Origin: Candidatus Poribacteria bacterium
GTDB taxonomy: Bacteria > Poribacteria > WGA-4E > JAJDTR01
Assembly (NCBI GenBank): GCA_965222225.1
Contig: CBDCTK010000002.1
Coordinates: forward strand, 4,544,001 to 4,608,000
DNA length: 64,000 nt
Direction: 5' to 3'
Shown here: piece after piece, positions 4,333-62,809 of the stretch
Layout: the number at the start of each line of letters is the position of its first letter
Numbering within the stretch: the stretch's first letter is position 1
The notes under the pieces: model-generated
What the model was told of the DNA's origin: nothing
The model's input: the letters and a program-made list of their open reading frames with translations, nothing else
Databases searched by the model: none
Position numbers and translations under genes: made by a program

Positions 4333-4399
4333 GTAGGCAGGGATCAAGCAAGATCAAGGGAGTGAATAATGACCGCGATAGAGATCTTCTTGCCCTGCC
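4333..4399 (-). repeat. GTAG-type REP hairpin interrupted by 38-bp micro-element
   Basis: GTAGGCAGG (4333-4341), partial unit 4342-4351, full unit 4352-4389, then TTGCCCTGCC. Removing the insert gives GTAGGCAGG[GC]TTGCCCTGCC. Confidence 0.8.
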
Positions 4400-4439: not shown

Positions 4440-4490
4440 AGGGATTGAAGCGTAGAAACGGGAATTAAACTACCCTACCACGAACCTTTA

Positions 4491-4730
4491 GAGCCTGATT
4501 GAATAATCGGTGGCAAAGCCATTTTTGGTCATTTGTGGCAAGTTTTTTCATGTTTTCATTGTTGGCTGCTACATACCTGTGGGATTACTATCGCACGGGA
4601 TTTGCTATGGAGTTCTATCGCCTTCCTTATCCTGTCAGTTGATCGGTCACTATCCGTTCCCTTGATCGTTATCCGCTCGTTTGATCGGAGTGCGCACCCT
4701 ACGAGAAATGGTGCGCGGTGCCCACCCTAC
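4491..4730 (+). mobile_element. IS5-like MITE copy (left end only) with nested 38-bp units and REPs
   Basis: TTA followed by GAGCCTGATTGAATAATCGGTGGCAAAGCCATTTTTGG, matching copies at 26381 and 31233. Nested units 4581-4686; intact REP 4710-4730; right TIR not found. Confidence 0.7.
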
Positions 4731-26280: not shown

Positions 26281-26360
26281 GGCGGGGCAAGAAGATCTCT
26301 ATCGCGGTCACTACAGGATCTTCTATCGCCTTCGCTATTCGCTCAGTTGATCCCCGGCTA
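26281..26360 (+). repeat. REP hairpin interrupted by 38-bp units
   Basis: GGCGGGGCAA, partial unit 26291-26314, full unit 26315-26352, then CCCGGCTA. Confidence 0.78.
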
Positions 26361-26380
26361 TTCACCACCTTTGCCCTTTA

Positions 26381-26618
26381 GAGCCTGATTGAATAATCGG
26401 TAGCAAAGCCATTTTTGGTCATTTGAAGACACGATTTTTCATGTTGTTATTGTTGCCTGCTACGTACCTGTGGGATCCCTACGAGATTTCTATCGCGGTG
26501 GGATCTTCTATCGCACTCGCTATCTGCTCGCTTGATCCTATTCGGTCACTTGATCACTCGTTATCCACTCGCTTGATCGCAGTGCGCACCCTACAAACTG
26601 TACTTTTCAAACAGGCTC
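26381..26618 (+). mobile_element. IS5-like MITE (238 bp) with triple-nested 38-bp units
   Basis: TIRs GAGCCTGATTGAA / TTCAAACAGGCTC; flanks TTA and TTG; nested units 26472-26578. Confidence 0.82.
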
Positions 26619-26622
26619 TTGA

Positions 26623-30950: not shown

Positions 30951-31232
30951 ACTGTTTTCACCATTCCTTAAACCATCATATACGGGTCCGCGGCGCCGCG
31001 CAAACCGTCGGAGCCGTTAGCCAGAGGCAGATATATCTCAACGAGTTGGTTCTTTGTTTCAGCGATGATTTCTTGATTGTCTCAGTTTTGGCAATAACGA
31101 AAATTCGGCAGTTTTTGCTGCTTGCCATGGAAATTACGAAGGCTATTTTACCCGTTTTTCGCGTCCCGTTCAATACCAATCTCCCGGTTGAAGGGATTTG
31201 CGGAGTTCAGGTCGTACGCTGCCCTGCGTTTA

Positions 31233-31433
31233 GAGCCTGTTTGAATAAGCGGGAGCAAAGCCATTTTTGATCATTTGTAGGAAGTTTTTTCATGTTTTTA
31301 TTGTTGCCAGCTACGTACTGTGGGATCCCTATCGCACTCGTTATCCACTCGCTTGAGGGGATCTCTATCGCGCTCGTAATCCACTCGCTTGATCGCAGTG
31401 CACACCCTACAAATGTACTTTTCAAACAGGCTC
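31233..31433 (+). mobile_element. IS5-like MITE (201 bp), TTA target duplication
   Basis: Perfect 13-bp TIRs GAGCCTGTTTGAA / TTCAAACAGGCTC; TTA at 31230-31232 and 31434-31436; two 38-bp-family units at 31322-31394. Confidence 0.88.
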
Positions 31434-32834
31434 TTACTCATGGAAACTGAATGAGAAGATCTTTGATTCTCGCAGTTCGAACTTCAACTTAATCTCCCTG
31501 TCCTTTAGTCTATCCAACGCGAGTCCGGCTCTCCACGCTATCTTCGCGTCTGAAACGGTGGTTGTTACCAACTTCCCTTCAGCCACTCGTTTGTTGTCTT
31601 TGTCCAAGAGAGTGACCTTGACAAAGCCGGACGGCGCGACATCGGCGCTGATGCAGAGCGAATTGCCGACGATCGATACGGCTTTGGTCGTAAGTGCCCC
31701 GGTGCTGTTGCTTCCTCCGGCGATCTGTTCGTAGCCGGCAAAACCGTCGGGCCGAAACCGAGCCAGGGCAAAGTAGCCGTTGCGCCAGCCCATGAACCTA
31801 CCGTCGTTCGCACCGTAGTAAAGGAGAATCTCGTCTTCCATCACAATCGGGGTGGACGCAAAGATGCAGCCCCAGTCATAGTCGCCCATCACCGCGCCAT
31901 TCGGAATCAGCGGCTTGCCGGGCTGGATCCGATGCCATTGCTTGCTATCCGGGCTCCATGCCAATTCGCACCATTGCCTGCTCGCTTCGATGTCAAAGAG
32001 TCCTATCATGCCGAGGTAGACACCGGCGTGGGGGAGCACGATCAAATCATGGATCTGCATGCGCGGGTCAAGCCCTTCCATAACAGGCTCTGTTTTTGAC
32101 CATTTCAGAAAGCCCTCCGACTCGCTCCTTACCGCTTGCCGATGCCCCTGGTATCCGTAGCGGCCCGTGGTTTTCTCACCGCCCCAACTACGCGTGATAA
32201 GCACATACTTCCCAAGATCTTCGTCCCACCACACGCTCGGGTGCGTGTCGCCAATATCTATGGGTCCGACATCGTGCTTGTTGCCCCAATGAATTCCATT
32301 CGGGGAGAACCAAACCGCACTCTTTTGCCTTTCCGGTTTAACTGCCTTGTAACGCCTTTGCGGATCGGTTTCATGCGGATCTTTCATAACCGCTAAACGG
32401 TAGTGTTCTATGACAATATTGTTCCTCTTGCTGCCGTTGAAGTCTATCAAACCCAAGTCAGGCTTTTCCCAATTAATCCCGTCCCGAGAAGTCGCATAGC
32501 ACACGCCGGACCTACGTTTGCCCTCTGTCCAGTTGACCCATGCCCGTTTTTCGGACGGAATGCCCTCACCCGGGAGATCTCCTTTAGATTCGGACCTGGT
32601 GAATATGCTATACCAGCACTTGAAAATCTTCTCCTCTTGGTCATAGATGGCACTACAGTAGGGATTGTCGTATCGGGGCTCCCACGGCTTGTCTTCCTTG
32701 AAGAGCGGATTGTTCCTGTCTTTGTGCGCGACACCAACAGTCAGCTCCACGTTGTTTTCCTCTTCGATGATTCGCGAATCAAGAACGAGGTACCTGTCAC
32801 GCGCTTTGGTGTTGTCACTTGCTGCACTGGCCAT
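31434..32834 (-). CDS. Five-bladed beta-propeller glycoside hydrolase-like protein
   Basis: CYATSRDGINWEKP, SPNGIHW, ELAWSPD, LLYYGA, FRPDGFAG. Confidence 0.7.
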   Translation of the reverse strand: MASAASDNTKARDRYLVLDSRIIEEENNVELTVGVAHKDRNNPLFKEDKPWEPRYDNPYCSAIYDQEEKIFKCWYSIFTRSESKGDLPGEGIPSEKRAWVNWTEGKRRSGVCYATSRDGINWEKPDLGLIDFNGSKRNNIVIEHYRLAVMKDPHETDPQRRYKAVKPERQKSAVWFSPNGIHWGNKHDVGPIDIGDTHPSVWWDEDLGKYVLITRSWGGEKTTGRYGYQGHRQAVRSESEGFLKWSKTEPVMEGLDPRMQIHDLIVLPHAGVYLGMIGLFDIEASRQWCELAWSPDSKQWHRIQPGKPLIPNGAVMGDYDWGCIFASTPIVMEDEILLYYGANDGRFMGWRNGYFALARFRPDGFAGYEQIAGGSNSTGALTTKAVSIVGNSLCISADVAPSGFVKVTLLDKDNKRVAEGKLVTTTVSDAKIAWRAGLALDRLKDREIKLKFELRESKIFSFSFHE

Positions 32835-39063: not shown

Positions 39064-39680
39064 TACTGTTTTCCTCCTATATCTTCAGAACTTTCTCAGA
39101 AAATCTGGAAAGCGTTATTGAGTTGAGTATTGCAGCGATTTCTGCTTTACTCTTTTGACAGTTTCGTAGCCAACTGCTGTAATAGTCTATTATGGATGCG
39201 TATATCTGTCAATAAAAAAATGCACGCTGTTTCCCCATAAACGTGCACCTTAAATCCTTCATACCCGGTAACCACGCGGGTTTCAGCACTCACAATACAG
39301 ATAAAACTCATAGAACTCCTAAATCCGCCCTGTTGCCCCATGTAATTATGAAGGAAACTCGACAGTCCAAACGACGATAGCCGTTGTCTAGGTAAACTCT
39401 AATTTTTCTCAGGCTGGGTTCATCACTAGCAGACAGGCCCTATACTCCGTTACCTTGGACGTCAATGCAGAACGCATTATCACCATTATCAATCCCTTTG
39501 TCCAATCACTGATGGCCAACGCCTTCGATTCCTGAATCGCTATCTGATTCATGATTCGTCTCCCCGGCTTTCAACGGATCACTGACCACTTGTTATCTCT
39601 AAATACCGATAAGTGGGATCATACTAATACCTTGTCTCTAAATTTTCAGTGCATAAATAGCGTCAATCATGTGGTGTCAA

Positions 39681-39737
39681 GGCGGGGCAAGGGAATCTCT
39701 ATCGCCCTCGCTGTCCGCTCGCTTGATCTCCGCCTAC
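39681..39737 (+). repeat. REP hairpin with one clean 38-bp insertion
   Basis: GGCGGGGCAA, unit 39691-39728, then TCCGCCTAC. Confidence 0.82.
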
Positions 39738-39800
39738 GGAGAAAGAGAATGATAGGATTAAAGCATCACATTCACTGTTATTCAAGCGAACTGGTAAAAG

Positions 39801-39958
39801 TAACCCAAGTTGCCACTTACAAGATTTTAGGCGTGTAGACACTGTTCTTAATTGAGAATTATTCATTATTCACGGATATTTCGTAGCGCAAACTGTCAGT
39901 TCGCGCACTCACAGGCACAATCTAACAGATCGTGCTACAAAGGTGACAACTTAGGTTA
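39801..39958. mobile_element. Putative MITE with about 17-bp imperfect TIRs
   Basis: TAACCCAAGTTGCCACT versus reverse-complemented right end TAACCTAAGTTGTCACC; right half repeated at 34666. Confidence 0.55.
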
Positions 39959-40308
39959 AGTAAGAATGCCGAATATAGAGCCGATTCCTTTGACGCTTTT
40001 CAATTGCAAACCTATACAAATATGTGGCAATATATAGGTATTGCCAATAGGTGGAAAATTTAACTATGGATAAACGCAAGCGATTTACGCTCAAGCAACT
40101 CGACACAGGGGCATCACCGCAAATTACGGGGAACTATCGGAGACTTCATGGACGCTCGGTCGTCCAATGGACGTCATAATTCGTTAATTGAGGATGATTT
40201 GCCACGCTTCGAAGACCGACACCGTCAAGCCATCGAGTTTCTCCACAGACATTTCGTGTTCAAGGCTGGCTATATTCACTTTTGACACGAATCTCCATCT
40301 GAGGTCTT

Positions 40309-43161: not shown

Positions 43162-43269
43162 CTGTCCAACTCAGACGCGCGAACGTGACCTGTCCCAAAT
43201 TACATTGACATGAGTTACTCCGGTATCCCTTGGACAAGTTACGAGACGGCGGAGCGTGCCTACTAGTCT

Positions 43270-43312
43270 AAGCTATCTATCGCACTCGCTAATCGCTCGT
43301 TTAATCTCCTAC
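43270..43312 (+). repeat. Degenerate 38-bp unit abutting REP end
   Basis: CTATCGCACTCGCTAATCGCTCGTTTAATC followed by TCCTAC. Confidence 0.65.
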
Positions 43313-43501
43313 AGTAGGTTTGTTGTAACAATCTTCAACAATCAAGTCGCTAATTTCCCTCCTTAATATGTGTAAATGTGAATGGAAATGACTACAGCAG
43401 CCGATAACAGTTCCGTACGCGCTGCGGCGTATTCTTGGGTTCGGAAGCAAATACACGTTCACAGATACCAACTTCAGTAGAGTTTTCCTCATGGAGGCCT
43501 T

Positions 43502-55406: not shown

Positions 55407-58400
55407 CTAGTCGTCTGCGCTTATCTCTGCTCCTACCGGCAGATCCTCCATTACAGGACTTTGGACGGGAGAACGAATTCTTGCAAACAACGCGTTTATA
55501 TCCGTTGTAATCGCGTATAGCGCCGGCATAACAAAGAGTGTCAACAGCGTCGCAAACGTCAGTCCGAAGATGATCGTGCTAGCCAACGGCATCCAGATCG
55601 GCGATTTTCCGCCCAACCCGACCGCCATCGGAATCAATCCGCAGACCGTTGTAATGGTTGTCAACAGAATCGGACGTAATCGGACGCCAGCACCTCTAAG
55701 AATCGCGCGCCACCGACTGCTTCCATTTCTGCGATAGCGGTTAATGAAGTCGATTAGCACAATCGAGTCATTAACCACAATTCCGGCGAGCGCTACAATG
55801 CCAAACATGGCTATCATGCTTAACGTCGCGCCTACAGCCAAGAGTCCAATCATCGCGCCGATGATTCCGAATGGCACCGCCAGGAGAATAATTACGGGTT
55901 GAAGGAAGGACTTAAACTGAGTCGCCAAGATAACATAAATCAAGAAAACACCAATCACAAATAGCTGAACCAGATCGGCAAAGGATTCCTGAATCTGATC
56001 GAATTCACCTCGGAAGTCCAGGCGGTATCCGGGAAACATAGTCTCTATGCCCGCGAATGTCTCAATTAGCGCTTGATTTACTTCAACAGCTGTAGTCTTG
56101 TCAGAATCTACGGAAGCATTTACCGTAATCGCCCGATCTCCGTCAAAGCGGCGAACCTCGACATATCCCCTTTCCTCTTGCACATCGGCGATGTCTCTCA
56201 ACGGAACAATTTCTCCCGCCGGCGTAGATATTAGGAGCTCCTCAAGGTCTGAGATTGTCTGAAGAGCGGCTTCGCTATATTTGACGATCACATCTACGGC
56301 CTCGTCGGCATCACGATAGGTGGTAGTAATATTGCCTTCGACTGCATTGCGAACATTGTAGGCTATTTGAAAGACATTTAACCCAAATTGATGCGCCTTT
56401 TCCTGCTTCACGTGCACTCGGAGTTCGGACTTCCCGACGAGAAAATCATCCTGAATTGCATAGACGCCTTCCATCTGACGCAATTCCGCTTTAAGCAGGT
56501 CGGCAATCCGATTTAATTCACGGAAATCCGGTCCCTTGATTTTCACATCAACGTCGGCTCCCTGGGGCGGTCCTCCTTGCAGTTTATCAATGGTAAGTTT
56601 TTCGATGCCGCTGATTTTCGCAACCTGCGGACGAAGGTCGTTCACAATATCATCTACACTGCGTTTGCGCTGATCTTTCGGAACAAGTTCAACCAGCACT
56701 TCGCCTACATTCGATCGCAATGTTGTACTGCCCAATATACCGGATGTTGGGGTGTGTAATCCGAGGTTGCTTACAATGGCGACCCGTTCGGCAGCCGGGA
56801 TAGACGCGGCGACCTTCTCAAGTTGAGAAATCACCACGCTAGTCTCTTTCATCCCAAACGAAGGAGGCATTTCGGCTTTCAGATAGAATTGGGGAAAGTC
56901 TTCTCCGGGAAACAACTCCTTATCAAGTGCCATGAACGCAGCGGCACAAACCACCACGCCCGTAGCCAATACTCCGATCACCACGGCATACCGCCATCGC
57001 ACGGTGAATTTCAAAACCGCTACGTAACGCTTCTTTATCGGATTAAACCAGTTGTTACGACGGGTATTTTTATTCGATGCCTTTCCCCACTCGGCAACGT
57101 GGGCGGGAAGAATCATAAAGACTTCAAGCAATGATGCTACTAGCACCAAAATGGCAACAATAGGCACAACACGCATAAATTGACCGGGTATACCCGACAT
57201 GAACATCAGCGGCCCAAACGCCGCAACCGTGGTCAAACTTGCAGCAAGAACGGGAGCTCCTACCTGTTCGGCGCCAACGACGGCAGCTTCGCGCGGCGAT
57301 TTTCCTCGCTGAATGTGTCGATAGATATTTTCAATCACCACAATAGCATCATCTACGACAATACCTACGACGAGTATCAAGCCAAATAAAGCGACACCGC
57401 TGAGCACGATCCCCGTCAAGTGCATGAAAAGGAAGGTCGCCATGAATGCAACCGGGATGCCAAGTGCAGCAAAGAGCGCGTTACGAAAGCCCAAGAATAC
57501 GAACAACAGAATAACTACAAGAAAGAGCCCGAAGAAAGCATTGGTTTCGAGGATACCAAACCGTTCCCTCAGAATAACGGAGTAATCATTTACTATTGAA
57601 ATCTTTGCATCCTCCGGCGCAACCAATTTGTAATCTTCAACGAGTTCGCGAATTTGCTCAACCAACTTGATGGTATTTGTTTCTGTCTTGCGTTGAATTG
57701 TCAAACTGATGGAGGGCGTGCCGTGAATACGTGACAACGTGCGTGGCTTCTCGTAGGTATCGGAGACGGTTGCAATATCGCTCAATCGTAATGAGGTGCC
57801 CGTACCTCGCGATCGGATTATCGTGTCTTGAATCTCATCAATACTCCGAAATTCGCCCAAGGTGCGAACAAGGTATTCAGATACGCCAACTTCCAGCGTT
57901 CCCGCAGGCAGGTTGAGGTTGTGGTACCTCAACGCATTTATCACCTCGGTGATAGGAAGCTGATATGCCCGCAGCTTGTTCGGATCGACTTCAATCCAAA
58001 TCTCTCTTTCGCGCACTCCTGCCAAGCGTACAGATCCGACACCCTTGATGTCAAGAATCTCGTCCCTGAGATTCTCGGCGATAGCCTTCATCTGCGGCTC
58101 CGAGATGGATCCTCCAACGACGAGTGTTAGCACGGGAAAATTTGATTCCATGTCGAATTCCACAACTTCCGGCTCATTCAAAATCTCGTTCGGGAGATCG
58201 TTCACGCGTTCCACTGCGGAGCGCAAGTTTTGGAGTTGCTTGCTGTATTCCCTATCGCTAATCTCTTCGAACTGAAGCGCAATTGTAGATATCCCTTCTG
58301 AAGATGTCGAAAGCATCAGATCAATCTTGTTGACCTCGTCTTCGATAGCTTCCTCAATTGGGACCGTTACCAATTTCTCAACCTCTTCGGGAGACGCGCC

Positions 58401-62717: not shown

Positions 62718-62809
62718 GGCTGGTGGGATCTCTATCCGGATCTGTTCAGTCGTTTGATTGCAGGGGAATTCTATCGCCCTCCTTAATCAGTCGGTTGATC
62801 GCACCCTAC
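62718..62809 (+). repeat. One REP carrying two separate 38-bp-family insertions
   Basis: GGCTGGT, unit 62725-62759, GCA, unit 62763-62800, then GCACCCTAC. Confidence 0.78.

Follow-up and report, generated by a model that had tools for sequence, protein, structure and literature searches.

What builds a stretch of bacterial DNA in which the pieces of one short repeat lie in the order left, left, full, right, right, as if each copy had been opened by the next? This question is raised by positions 26472-26578 of a 64-kb stretch from the genome of a Candidatus Poribacteria bacterium, the whole of which is called the window here. The repeat at this locus is a non-autonomous mobile DNA element that has reached about 1000 copies per genome in a single genus of Candidatus Poribacteria. 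Its insertions have a fixed orientation and are limited to a few types of site, among which short hairpins are frequent. Its targets include hairpins that resemble repetitive extragenic palindromes (REPs) of the GTAG type, REPs borne by miniature inverted-repeat transposable elements (MITEs), CRISPR repeats and, within copies of the unit that were there before, the hairpin region. Repeated self-targeting builds arrays of the left-left-full-right-right kind. That a real mobile element nests here by insertion is a conclusion held with high confidence. The wider explanation, in which a unit akin to the small dispersed repeats (SDRs) of cyanobacteria is directed to hairpins and is cut and joined as a single strand, in trans, by a Y1 (HUH) transposase, is given a probability of about 0.5.

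Three layers at one locus

Coordinates are window positions unless they carry the prefix G000:C2, where G000 is the genome studied and C2 its 5.6-Mb main contig. The focal array at 26472-26578 was resolved by automatic excision (peeling) with a position matrix built from 216 solo genomic units of exactly 37 nucleotides (nt), and three layers emerged, each unit lying inside the next. The innermost unit, C, is contiguous and ungapped at 26501-26537 (41.9 bits); with the preceding G it forms a complete 38-nt variant at 26500-26537, where the profile matches over positions 7-37 (E=1.9e-9). Once C is excised, the middle unit, B, closes with 2 bases missing (49.9 bits), its left piece (26483-26499) holding positions 1-17 and its right piece (26538-26555) positions 20-37 by peel and profile alike. 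Excision of B in turn closes the outermost unit, A, with 4 bases missing (49.0 bits), from a left piece at 26472-26482 (positions 1-10/11, boundary +/-1) and a right piece at 26556-26578 (positions 15-37 by peel; profile 14-37, E=1.8e-5). All five pieces lie on the forward strand, and the unit boundaries within this array are uncertain by 1 nt.

A preliminary description of the locus, made from the letters of the window, had already read the array as left-left-full-right-right, and the peel returns the same parse. It had also stated that the joined halves of A, with the gap filled, give the unsplit unit found at 31322, which is the case over positions 1-35, and that B needs two nucleotides restored, the number by which B is now found to fall short.

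Both sides of the peeled array are MITE sequence. The MITE-like carrier occupies 26380-26619 on the forward strand and has terminal inverted repeats AGAGCCTG...CAGGCTCT. On the right, the array is bordered by the rest of a REP-like palindrome ending in CCTAC (REP_B; 26579-26594, forward strand), and this flank belongs to a recurrent insertion-site class, ..GGCTGGT / GC / GCAGTGCG, with 15 events. Three copies of the MITE with these ends are present in the window, at 26380-26619, 31230-31435 and 4490-4720. All three lack the segment between two unit sites that full-length genomic copies possess, and the missing interiors fit a deletion that probably occurred through recombination between units.

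Repeats are hard to assemble, and an artefact of assembly or library preparation would fit the observation that Logan contigs in three of four runs (X4, X5 and X8) break inside the repeats of such arrays. Loose contig ends at 26481 run on as an unsplit unit, a place where alleles and paralogues are indistinguishable, and the contig joints recorded at the focal array have short sides. Against this, a 200-nt contig of the public short-read run X1 covers 26396-26595 with 0 differences and 0 gaps, at a depth of 74 that is close to the 71-73 of the unique flanks. Since this contig spans the array without a difference, the array is not a product of the assembler, and where the preliminary description had proposed to confirm its loci with spanning reads, a short-read contig supports the focal one. 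X1 may be the source sample, in which case it is independent of the assembler and not of the sample. The same family, with the same covariation, moreover recurs in 500-1100 copies in 10 separately assembled genomes, and the probability of an artefact is regarded as negligible. Contigs from an RNA library also cover the region; DNA carry-over is possible there, so transcription is not implied.

Across the genome, the modal length of the unit is 37 nt (range 36-38), a length found exactly in 216 of 319 simple loci, which replaces the 38 bp given in the preliminary description. One genomic copy reads GGGATCTCTATCGCACTCGCTATTCGCTCGCTTGATC. The motif TCGC occurs four times in the unit and GATC stands at each end, while the first three bases are ragged; at position 1, for instance, 153 copies have G, 52 have A and 8 have T. 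It had been proposed that a fixed-length unit integrates repeatedly into its own copies and that it has neither long terminal inverted repeats nor an open reading frame (ORF), and all of this is borne out.

The preliminary description had further suggested that the genome and its relatives be scanned. The genome (two contigs, 5.70 Mb, GC 0.50) contains 1030 ungapped 37-mers scoring at least 25 bits, against 0 for the reversed matrix, and nhmmer gives 1694 matches when fragments are included. The 22-nt 3' half has 950 genome matches, compared with 1-3 for five shuffled patterns. On the main contig, 959 of 1027 units (93%, by crude ORF calls) lie outside genes. A pattern allowing up to 3 mismatches was then applied to 176 genomes of the phylum, with reversed-pattern controls giving 0 everywhere. 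It matched in all 10 genomes of the unit's own genus, g1 (ten species), with 503-1118 copies per genome, in 4 of 4 genomes of genus g4 from another family (30-36 copies each), in the single genome of the sister genus g2 (3 copies) and in 6 scattered other genomes (1-16 copies each), whereas the remaining 155 genomes had no copy. In a species collection, all hits of the exact pattern among the at least 98 stretches listed were metagenome-assembled genomes of Candidatus Poribacteria. The pattern had no match in IMG/VR contigs, plasmids or phages, and Rfam 15 gave 0 matches at the gathering score in the 64-kb window. The unit is not related to a separate tandem array at G000:C2:1547511-1547800, whose period is about 19 nt (CTTAACCACTCTSCACTGY).

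The fold of the unit and its entry into earlier copies

Outside four pairs of variable positions, the unit is nearly invariant. Among the 216 solo units, mutual information peaks at the pairs 19-27 (0.99), 16-30 (0.83), 15-31 (0.46) and 20-26 (0.33), the next value being 0.17, and each of these four covarying pairs shows at least three complementary types. On the strand as written, A.C combinations far outnumber G.T, and A.C corresponds to G.T on the complement; the complementary, purine-rich strand is therefore taken as the folding strand. On that strand, the fold consists of two 2-bp helices around an invariant tandem G.A/A.G, with a 5-nt loop. The GATC motifs at the unit ends could also pair; both are invariant, so no covariation signal is possible for them.

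The covariation was examined in a set of 77 units (57 distinct), 73 of them from other Poribacteria genomes, collected with a pattern that left the eight paired positions free. In this set, 94.7% of cells pair, compared with 65.8 +/- 2.2% after shuffling, changes on both sides occur in 81 cells against 16.5, and the covariation score is 0.967 against 0.367. None of 500 shuffles reaches these values, and controls in which the pairing was slid stay at or below 0.2. Because compensatory changes preserve the fold, it is probably needed for propagation.

Nesting is a general property of the family. A unit prefix directly to the left and a unit suffix directly to the right were found for 164 of the 1030 units, compared with 8 of 5000 random positions. 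The host lacks 1 base in 62 of these 164 cases, 2 in 22, 3 in 50 and 4 in 4, which places 138 within this range and 26 outside it. The earlier statement that target bases are lost and none duplicated thus holds, while the range of 2-4 that accompanied it widens to 1-4. Breaks in the host concentrate at hot spots which, written as left end / right start, are 11/15, 13/15, 17/19, 17/20, 17/21 and 24/26. In a further 27 cases, 24 of which are at 12/14, unit and host point in opposite directions. When 828 arrays were peeled, 994 contiguous units were recovered, and another 223, 30 and 2 units became whole after one, two and three excisions, respectively. Control excisions shifted by -9, +9 or +14 nt gave 21-40 units at level 2, 0-1 at level 3 and 0 at level 4.

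The halves of a split host still carry the signature of the fold. Across the insert, 65 of 83 hosts have a Watson-Crick pair at 16-30 (shuffled mean 45.1, maximum 57 in 1000 shuffles) and 47 of 85 have one at 15-31 (shuffled mean 26.7, maximum 37). Since the halves still covary, the hosts were whole before insertion. At the 14 variable positions, the identity between inner unit and host is 0.409, compared with 0.477 +/- 0.012 for random units, and among 334 neighbouring unit pairs none stands exactly head to tail (distance 0).

Such arrays might alternatively be ascribed to replication slippage, tandem duplication or unequal recombination of sub-motifs, an explanation which the preliminary description had itself named as a possible refutation. 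Short motifs repeated within the unit, namely the four TCGC and the GATC at both ends, would favour it, as would the MITE interiors that were probably deleted through recombination between units. It is contradicted, however, by the absence of any pair at distance 0, by inner units that are no more like their hosts than random units are, by the covariation kept across the insert in the host halves, by the 27 inserts in reverse orientation and by the occurrence of units in unrelated hairpins that also exist empty. Slippage and its variants are accordingly considered very improbable. Peel, covariation, identity and spacing together indicate that units from elsewhere entered intact units, and that local duplication did not produce the arrays.

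The other loci in the window show the same features in different combinations. The preliminary description had counted nine loci; nhmmer finds 10, one of which is weak (56526-56540, E=0.9), so the earlier count stands. In the window, the 5' half-pattern occurs 13 times where 2.85 matches were expected, and none of 100 shuffles gives as many. The focal layout was said to recur at 4581-4686 and 48-149. At the former place (forward strand), a three-level nested array in the third MITE copy is confirmed by peel, while at the latter (forward strand) only two levels close, the outermost pieces lacking 8-9 nt. The sister MITE carries two adjacent units at 31322-31394 (forward strand), the first of which is the unsplit counterpart of unit A. 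In a composite inside a REP hairpin (GCGGGGCAAG...) at 26292-26352 (forward strand), a partial unit occupies 26292-26314 and is succeeded by a complete one of 38 nt at 26315-26352. Solo units are found at 4352-4388 on the reverse strand, at 39692-39728 on the forward strand within a GCGGGGCAAG / CCGCCTAC REP hairpin, and at 43270-43306 on the forward strand, where the 5' end has diverged and TCCTAC follows. Finally, at 62725-62800 (forward strand), the 12-nt head of a unit (62725-62736) precedes a complete copy (62764-62800), which abuts GCACCCTAC.

Target sites and their empty counterparts

Empty sites, which the preliminary description had wanted to see compared with filled ones, exist both as paralogues and as orthologues. 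For 79 of 445 solo units, the genome also contains a paralogous site that is empty and has the same 11+11-nt flanks; together they represent 27 site classes. True empty sites carry 2-5 bases between the flanks, and for four site types no site closed with 0 bases between the flanks was found. The bases replaced by the 79 units are TGC in 29 cases, GC in 20, ATGC in 9, TC in 7, CGC in 3 and others in the rest. In all 27 site classes the replaced segment ends in C, as does the unit itself, so that the counts of missing bases are ambiguous by one. An equal description would be a 36-nt insert placed 5' of a C with the loss of 1-4 bases; no target duplication is seen.

Three REP-like hairpin families illustrate the pattern, each given here as left flank / bases replaced by the unit / right flank. 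REP_B, GGTGCGCAG / TGC / GCACCCTAC, has 64 empty and 16 filled copies; a second family, GGTGGGCAG / TGC / CCACCCTAC, has 52 and 6; and a third, GCGGGGCAAG / ATGC / CCCGCCTAC, has 14 and 13. Stem variants differ among the 13 filled copies of the third family, which shows that this family was hit independently several times. In REP_B, the identical unit is present in 11 of the 16 filled copies, and 2 more differ at one position within the first three bases. These fills probably represent one event multiplied by the carrier MITE.

Hairpins are found around solo units more often than expected. A perfect flanking stem of at least 5 bp surrounds 75 of the 445, against about 20 expected; in 69 of these 75 the unit is directly succeeded by the 3' arm of the stem, and in 36 the arm in turn has CTAC behind it. 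Many insertions are thus located where a hairpin loop ends on its 3' side. Further sites lie 2-3 nt 5' of the foot of a hairpin, as in REP_A. The self-insertion hot spots are of both kinds: 24/26 falls at the loop end of the unit's own hairpin, and 11/15 and 13/15 at its foot.

A CRISPR array at G000:C2:2705499-2707790 is also affected. It contains 12 cores of a 37-nt repeat starting GTAGCAACC and adjoins Cas1 (C2:2703012-2703836). Five of its repeats are interrupted after ...GATGAAAAG by composites, with about 12 nt of repeat on both sides. At the beginning of each composite stands a unit in reverse orientation, and at its end a forward one.

Filled and empty forms also occur at orthologous places within the genus. 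The REP beside the focal MITE is empty in G005, where ATGC is present, and holds one unit in G004 and G002, whereas in G000 the same REP holds the partial and the complete unit of 26292-26352. At the orthologous place in G005, G004, G002, G007 and G006, the carrier MITE of the focal array is missing. The REP downstream of a gene for a Y1 transposase of 157 amino acids (aa), discussed below, has its empty form in G002, G009 and G004, while G000, G001 and G005 have a unit there. For the window units at 39692 and 43270, the neighbourhoods are rearranged or the whole segment is missing in five relatives. The unit-holding spaces 39488-40278 and 43170-43400 coincide with gene-order breaks between G000 and G005, G001 and G009.

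The orientation of the arrays follows GC skew, with a ratio of 239:128 where skew is positive and 121:291 where it is negative (Fisher p ~1e-23). Empty REP_B copies have the same bias, 29:16 versus 19:50. The direction of flanking genes does not explain orientation: in spaces between two forward genes the counts are 149 forward and 213 reverse, and in spaces between two reverse genes 131 and 151. The bias suggests a link to replication or single-stranded DNA, or selection against one orientation. Along C2, GC skew in 500-kb bins changes sign many times and does not define two clean replichores, and unit orientation flips along with it; the multiple sign changes may reflect rearrangements or assembler joins. 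The wider preference for hairpins, the covarying hairpin of the unit, its orientation relative to the replication strand and the length of 37 nt had all escaped the preliminary description.

Possible route of movement and nearest analogues

How such a unit would move can be approached through the enzymes encoded by its hosts. The single-strand HUH route is put forward tentatively, at less than even odds. In this scheme, the unit would be cut out or copied as a single strand at replication forks, moved in trans and exchanged into a target hairpin through two cleavage-joining reactions of an HUH enzyme. A protein probably reads or stabilises the weak hairpin. The best candidate for the enzyme would be a 157-aa IS200/IS605-type Y1 transposase, which is found in every genome of the genus and whose flanking REP is a preferred target of the unit.

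Five Y1_Tnp matches are present in G000. The 157-aa gene (G000:C2:3080258-3080728) scores 65.8 bits with NF033573 (cut-off 55) and 30.6 with the RAYT model (cut-off 80). It is encoded by G000 and by each of the 9 other genomes of the genus. In 6 of 6 species examined, the gene lies between inverted copies of REP_A, a CCCC-nnn-GGGG hairpin that is a frequent target of the unit. The upstream REP is repeated three times in tandem in G009, and a unit lies inside the downstream REP_A in 3 of the 6 species.

Other candidates were rejected. A 247-aa Y1 gene does not track the unit, being whole only in G000 and G005, with a fragment in G009 and a distant 29% match in G001. A third Y1 gene (G000:C2:3088937-3089269) is split into two frames and is flanked by inverted copies of its own GTAG-type REP family (GTAGGAGCGATCTCC...), a REP that is itself a target of the unit; this gene, too, is counted among those that do not track the unit. 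RVT_1/AbiA does not track the unit either: three of the nine further genomes of the genus (G006, G007 and G009) gave no RVT_1 match. The only reverse transcriptase of G000 is a 670-aa AbiA-type defence enzyme (PADLOC, 254.8 bits), whose gene lies at G000:C2:4500547-4501089 (L131:514-2526), some 43 kb upstream of the window. The genome also encodes Cas1, whose CRISPR repeat bears no relation to the unit. No match to Y2_Tnp was obtained, nor any for the accompanying control. An enzyme whose presence follows that of the unit, as the preliminary description had hoped for, did not emerge, and neither the Y1 genes nor RVT_1/AbiA track it cleanly. Gene presence favours Y1/HUH over reverse transcription without establishing it.

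Several observations weigh against the explanation through a Y1 transposase and hairpin targets. The 157-aa gene is also present in 7 of 7 g6 and 6 of 10 g3 genomes, which have no unit by pattern, and it was not found in 2 of 4 genomes of g4, which have 35-36 units each. The folding strand is the complement of the strand that prefers the G-rich side. By the geometry of replication, the G-rich strand is the lagging-strand template, and the folding strand is therefore opposite to the simple expectation from IS200/IS605. Loss of target bases and use of a single hairpin are both foreign to canonical Y1 transposition, and the bases to the left of the insertion point, in 27 site classes, are not a fixed tetranucleotide. 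The folding energy is weak (for the folding strand, -0.2 to -1.8 kcal/mol as DNA and -3.8 to -6.4 as RNA), and no significant folding z-score was obtained for either strand, as DNA or as RNA. Stems flank 75 of 445 solo units, so hairpin targeting describes a large subset of sites and not all of them. Because the carrier MITE spreads a single event, independent events are fewer than filled copies, which limits what the counts can bear.

Some of these observations would be accommodated by spread through RNA, in which the complementary strand would be transcribed, folded and copied at nicked hairpins by target-primed reverse transcription. Covariation compatible with G.U on one strand only agrees with this route, as does the better folding of that strand as RNA than as DNA. 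The ragged first three bases of the unit could reflect imprecise priming or termination, and small target deletions are usual in target-primed insertion. On the other hand, RVT_1 was not found in G006, G007 and G009, which have 520-691 units each, and the sole reverse transcriptase of G000 is the defence enzyme mentioned above. Orientation has no link to the direction of neighbouring genes and follows GC skew, and the RNA-library cover of the region may be DNA carry-over. Spread through RNA is thus judged unlikely.

Another trans-acting enzyme or repair pathway might be responsible instead, such as a structure-specific nuclease and ligase, a tyrosine or serine recombinase that, in the manner of integron integrases, acts on folded single strands, or hairpin cleavage followed by patch repair for which other copies serve as template. 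The events look like an exchange of short segments between two cuts, in which the 2-5 nt replaced and the unit both end in C, the targets are structured, and no tested candidate tracks the unit cleanly. On the other side, patch repair needs homology in the flanks, yet the flanks differ among 27 site classes, and the fixed ends and conserved fold of the unit point to dedicated recognition and not to general repair. This possibility, too, is judged unlikely. A stronger form of the Y1/HUH explanation would make the unit a distinct class of ultra-small, structure-guided mobile DNA, whose folded strand of 36-37 nt is exchanged into further hairpins of DNA, at their loop or foot, by two-cut cassette exchange with a host-resident Y1/HUH enzyme acting in trans; it is entertained as a speculative and rather unlikely proposal.

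The preliminary description had held that the repeat matches no known class and constitutes an undescribed system. This cannot be maintained, as the SDRs of Nostoc, to judge from what is reported of them and from passages of later papers, are the closest analogue. Elhai and colleagues reportedly described SDR1-8 in 2008 as very small dispersed repeats, 21-27 nt in length and located in MITEs. SDR1 and SDR4 are said to nest in their own copies, and SDR4-6 to keep their structure through compensatory changes, with spread through RNA reportedly being suggested. In passages of later papers, SDR5 is given as 21 nt long and as inserting precisely between bases three and four of HIP1, SDRs are confined to a narrow clade, and a paper on REPINs places them among short repeats of unresolved origin; the corresponding passage of a 2026 paper still calls their function and mechanism unknown.

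The SDR family of Nostocaceae is the nearest described system, and the unit appears to be of an SDR-like kind in a different phylum, the comparison being one of descriptions of SDRs and not of sequences. Like the unit, the SDRs are reportedly short, dispersed and non-coding, reside in MITEs and other repeats, nest in themselves and keep a fold by compensatory changes. Both insert precisely at specific sites and occur in a narrow clade. The present unit differs in its length of 37 nt, its Poribacteria host, its REP and CRISPR hairpin targets and the replacement of 1-4 target bases. HIP1 is not enriched in G000 (120 copies in 5.7 Mb). In the library searched, no description of this repeat turned up in listings and abstract openings on Poribacteria and repeats, and a search on SDRs and nested insertion gave nothing but unrelated uses of 'SDR'.

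Other classes share some features with the unit and differ in others. Like REPs and REPINs, it is short, abundant, extragenic, able to form a hairpin and oriented with replication, and a Y1 gene with inverted REP flanks is present. Unlike them, it has neither a GTAG head nor a long palindrome and inserts into GTAG-type REPs instead, and neighbouring pairs within 400 nt are mostly in the same orientation (259, against 75 opposed, of 334), unlike the inverted doublets of REPINs. The 157-aa Y1 protein, moreover, falls below the RAYT cut-off (30.6 versus 80 bits). Members of the IS200/IS605 family have no terminal inverted repeats, make no target duplication, depend on hairpins, are strand-biased and can be moved in trans. 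The unit resembles mini-elements of this family in lacking inverted terminal repeats and target duplication and in its biased orientation; it differs in that it has a single hairpin where the family has two subterminal ones, in lacking a fixed tetra- or pentanucleotide to the left of the insertion point, in removing target bases and in its opposite folding strand.

MITEs are likewise non-autonomous, short and dispersed, and the unit rides in them, but it has no terminal inverted repeats or target-site duplication and is five to ten times shorter than its carrier of about 240 nt. Integron attC sites are recognised as a folded single strand in which sequence varies while pairing is kept, and their insertion proceeds without duplication. 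The unit's pairing is similarly kept while the paired bases vary, and its insertion makes no duplication, but it is nearly invariant outside the four variable pairs and is dispersed genome-wide, not gathered in one array. Neither an integrase nor an attI context was noticed, though no search aimed at them was made. A CRISPR array, finally, has regular unique spacers, whereas units abut or interrupt one another, and the CRISPR repeat of this genome is unrelated to them.

To our knowledge, still-moving elements of this small size are known only from Nostoc. The unit therefore offers a second, independent case of SDR-like elements, in a candidate phylum of sponge symbionts for which several single-contig genomes exist. 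It provides hundreds of pairs of filled and empty sites, a target rule, a strand bias, a covarying fold and a short list of candidate enzymes, by which the question of the SDR-type mechanism becomes testable, in E. coli with oligonucleotides. For the organisms themselves, species of the genus differ in the intergenic spaces that the units mark, and the units also break CRISPR repeats and fragment short-read assemblies, effects that bear on the binning, annotation and strain typing of Poribacteria. If the cassette-exchange proposal were true, the unit would parasitise REPs, CRISPR repeats and itself, and among mobile elements whose target chemistry is defined it would be the smallest. It would then also supply the missing mechanism for the cyanobacterial SDRs, whether by convergence or by shared descent.

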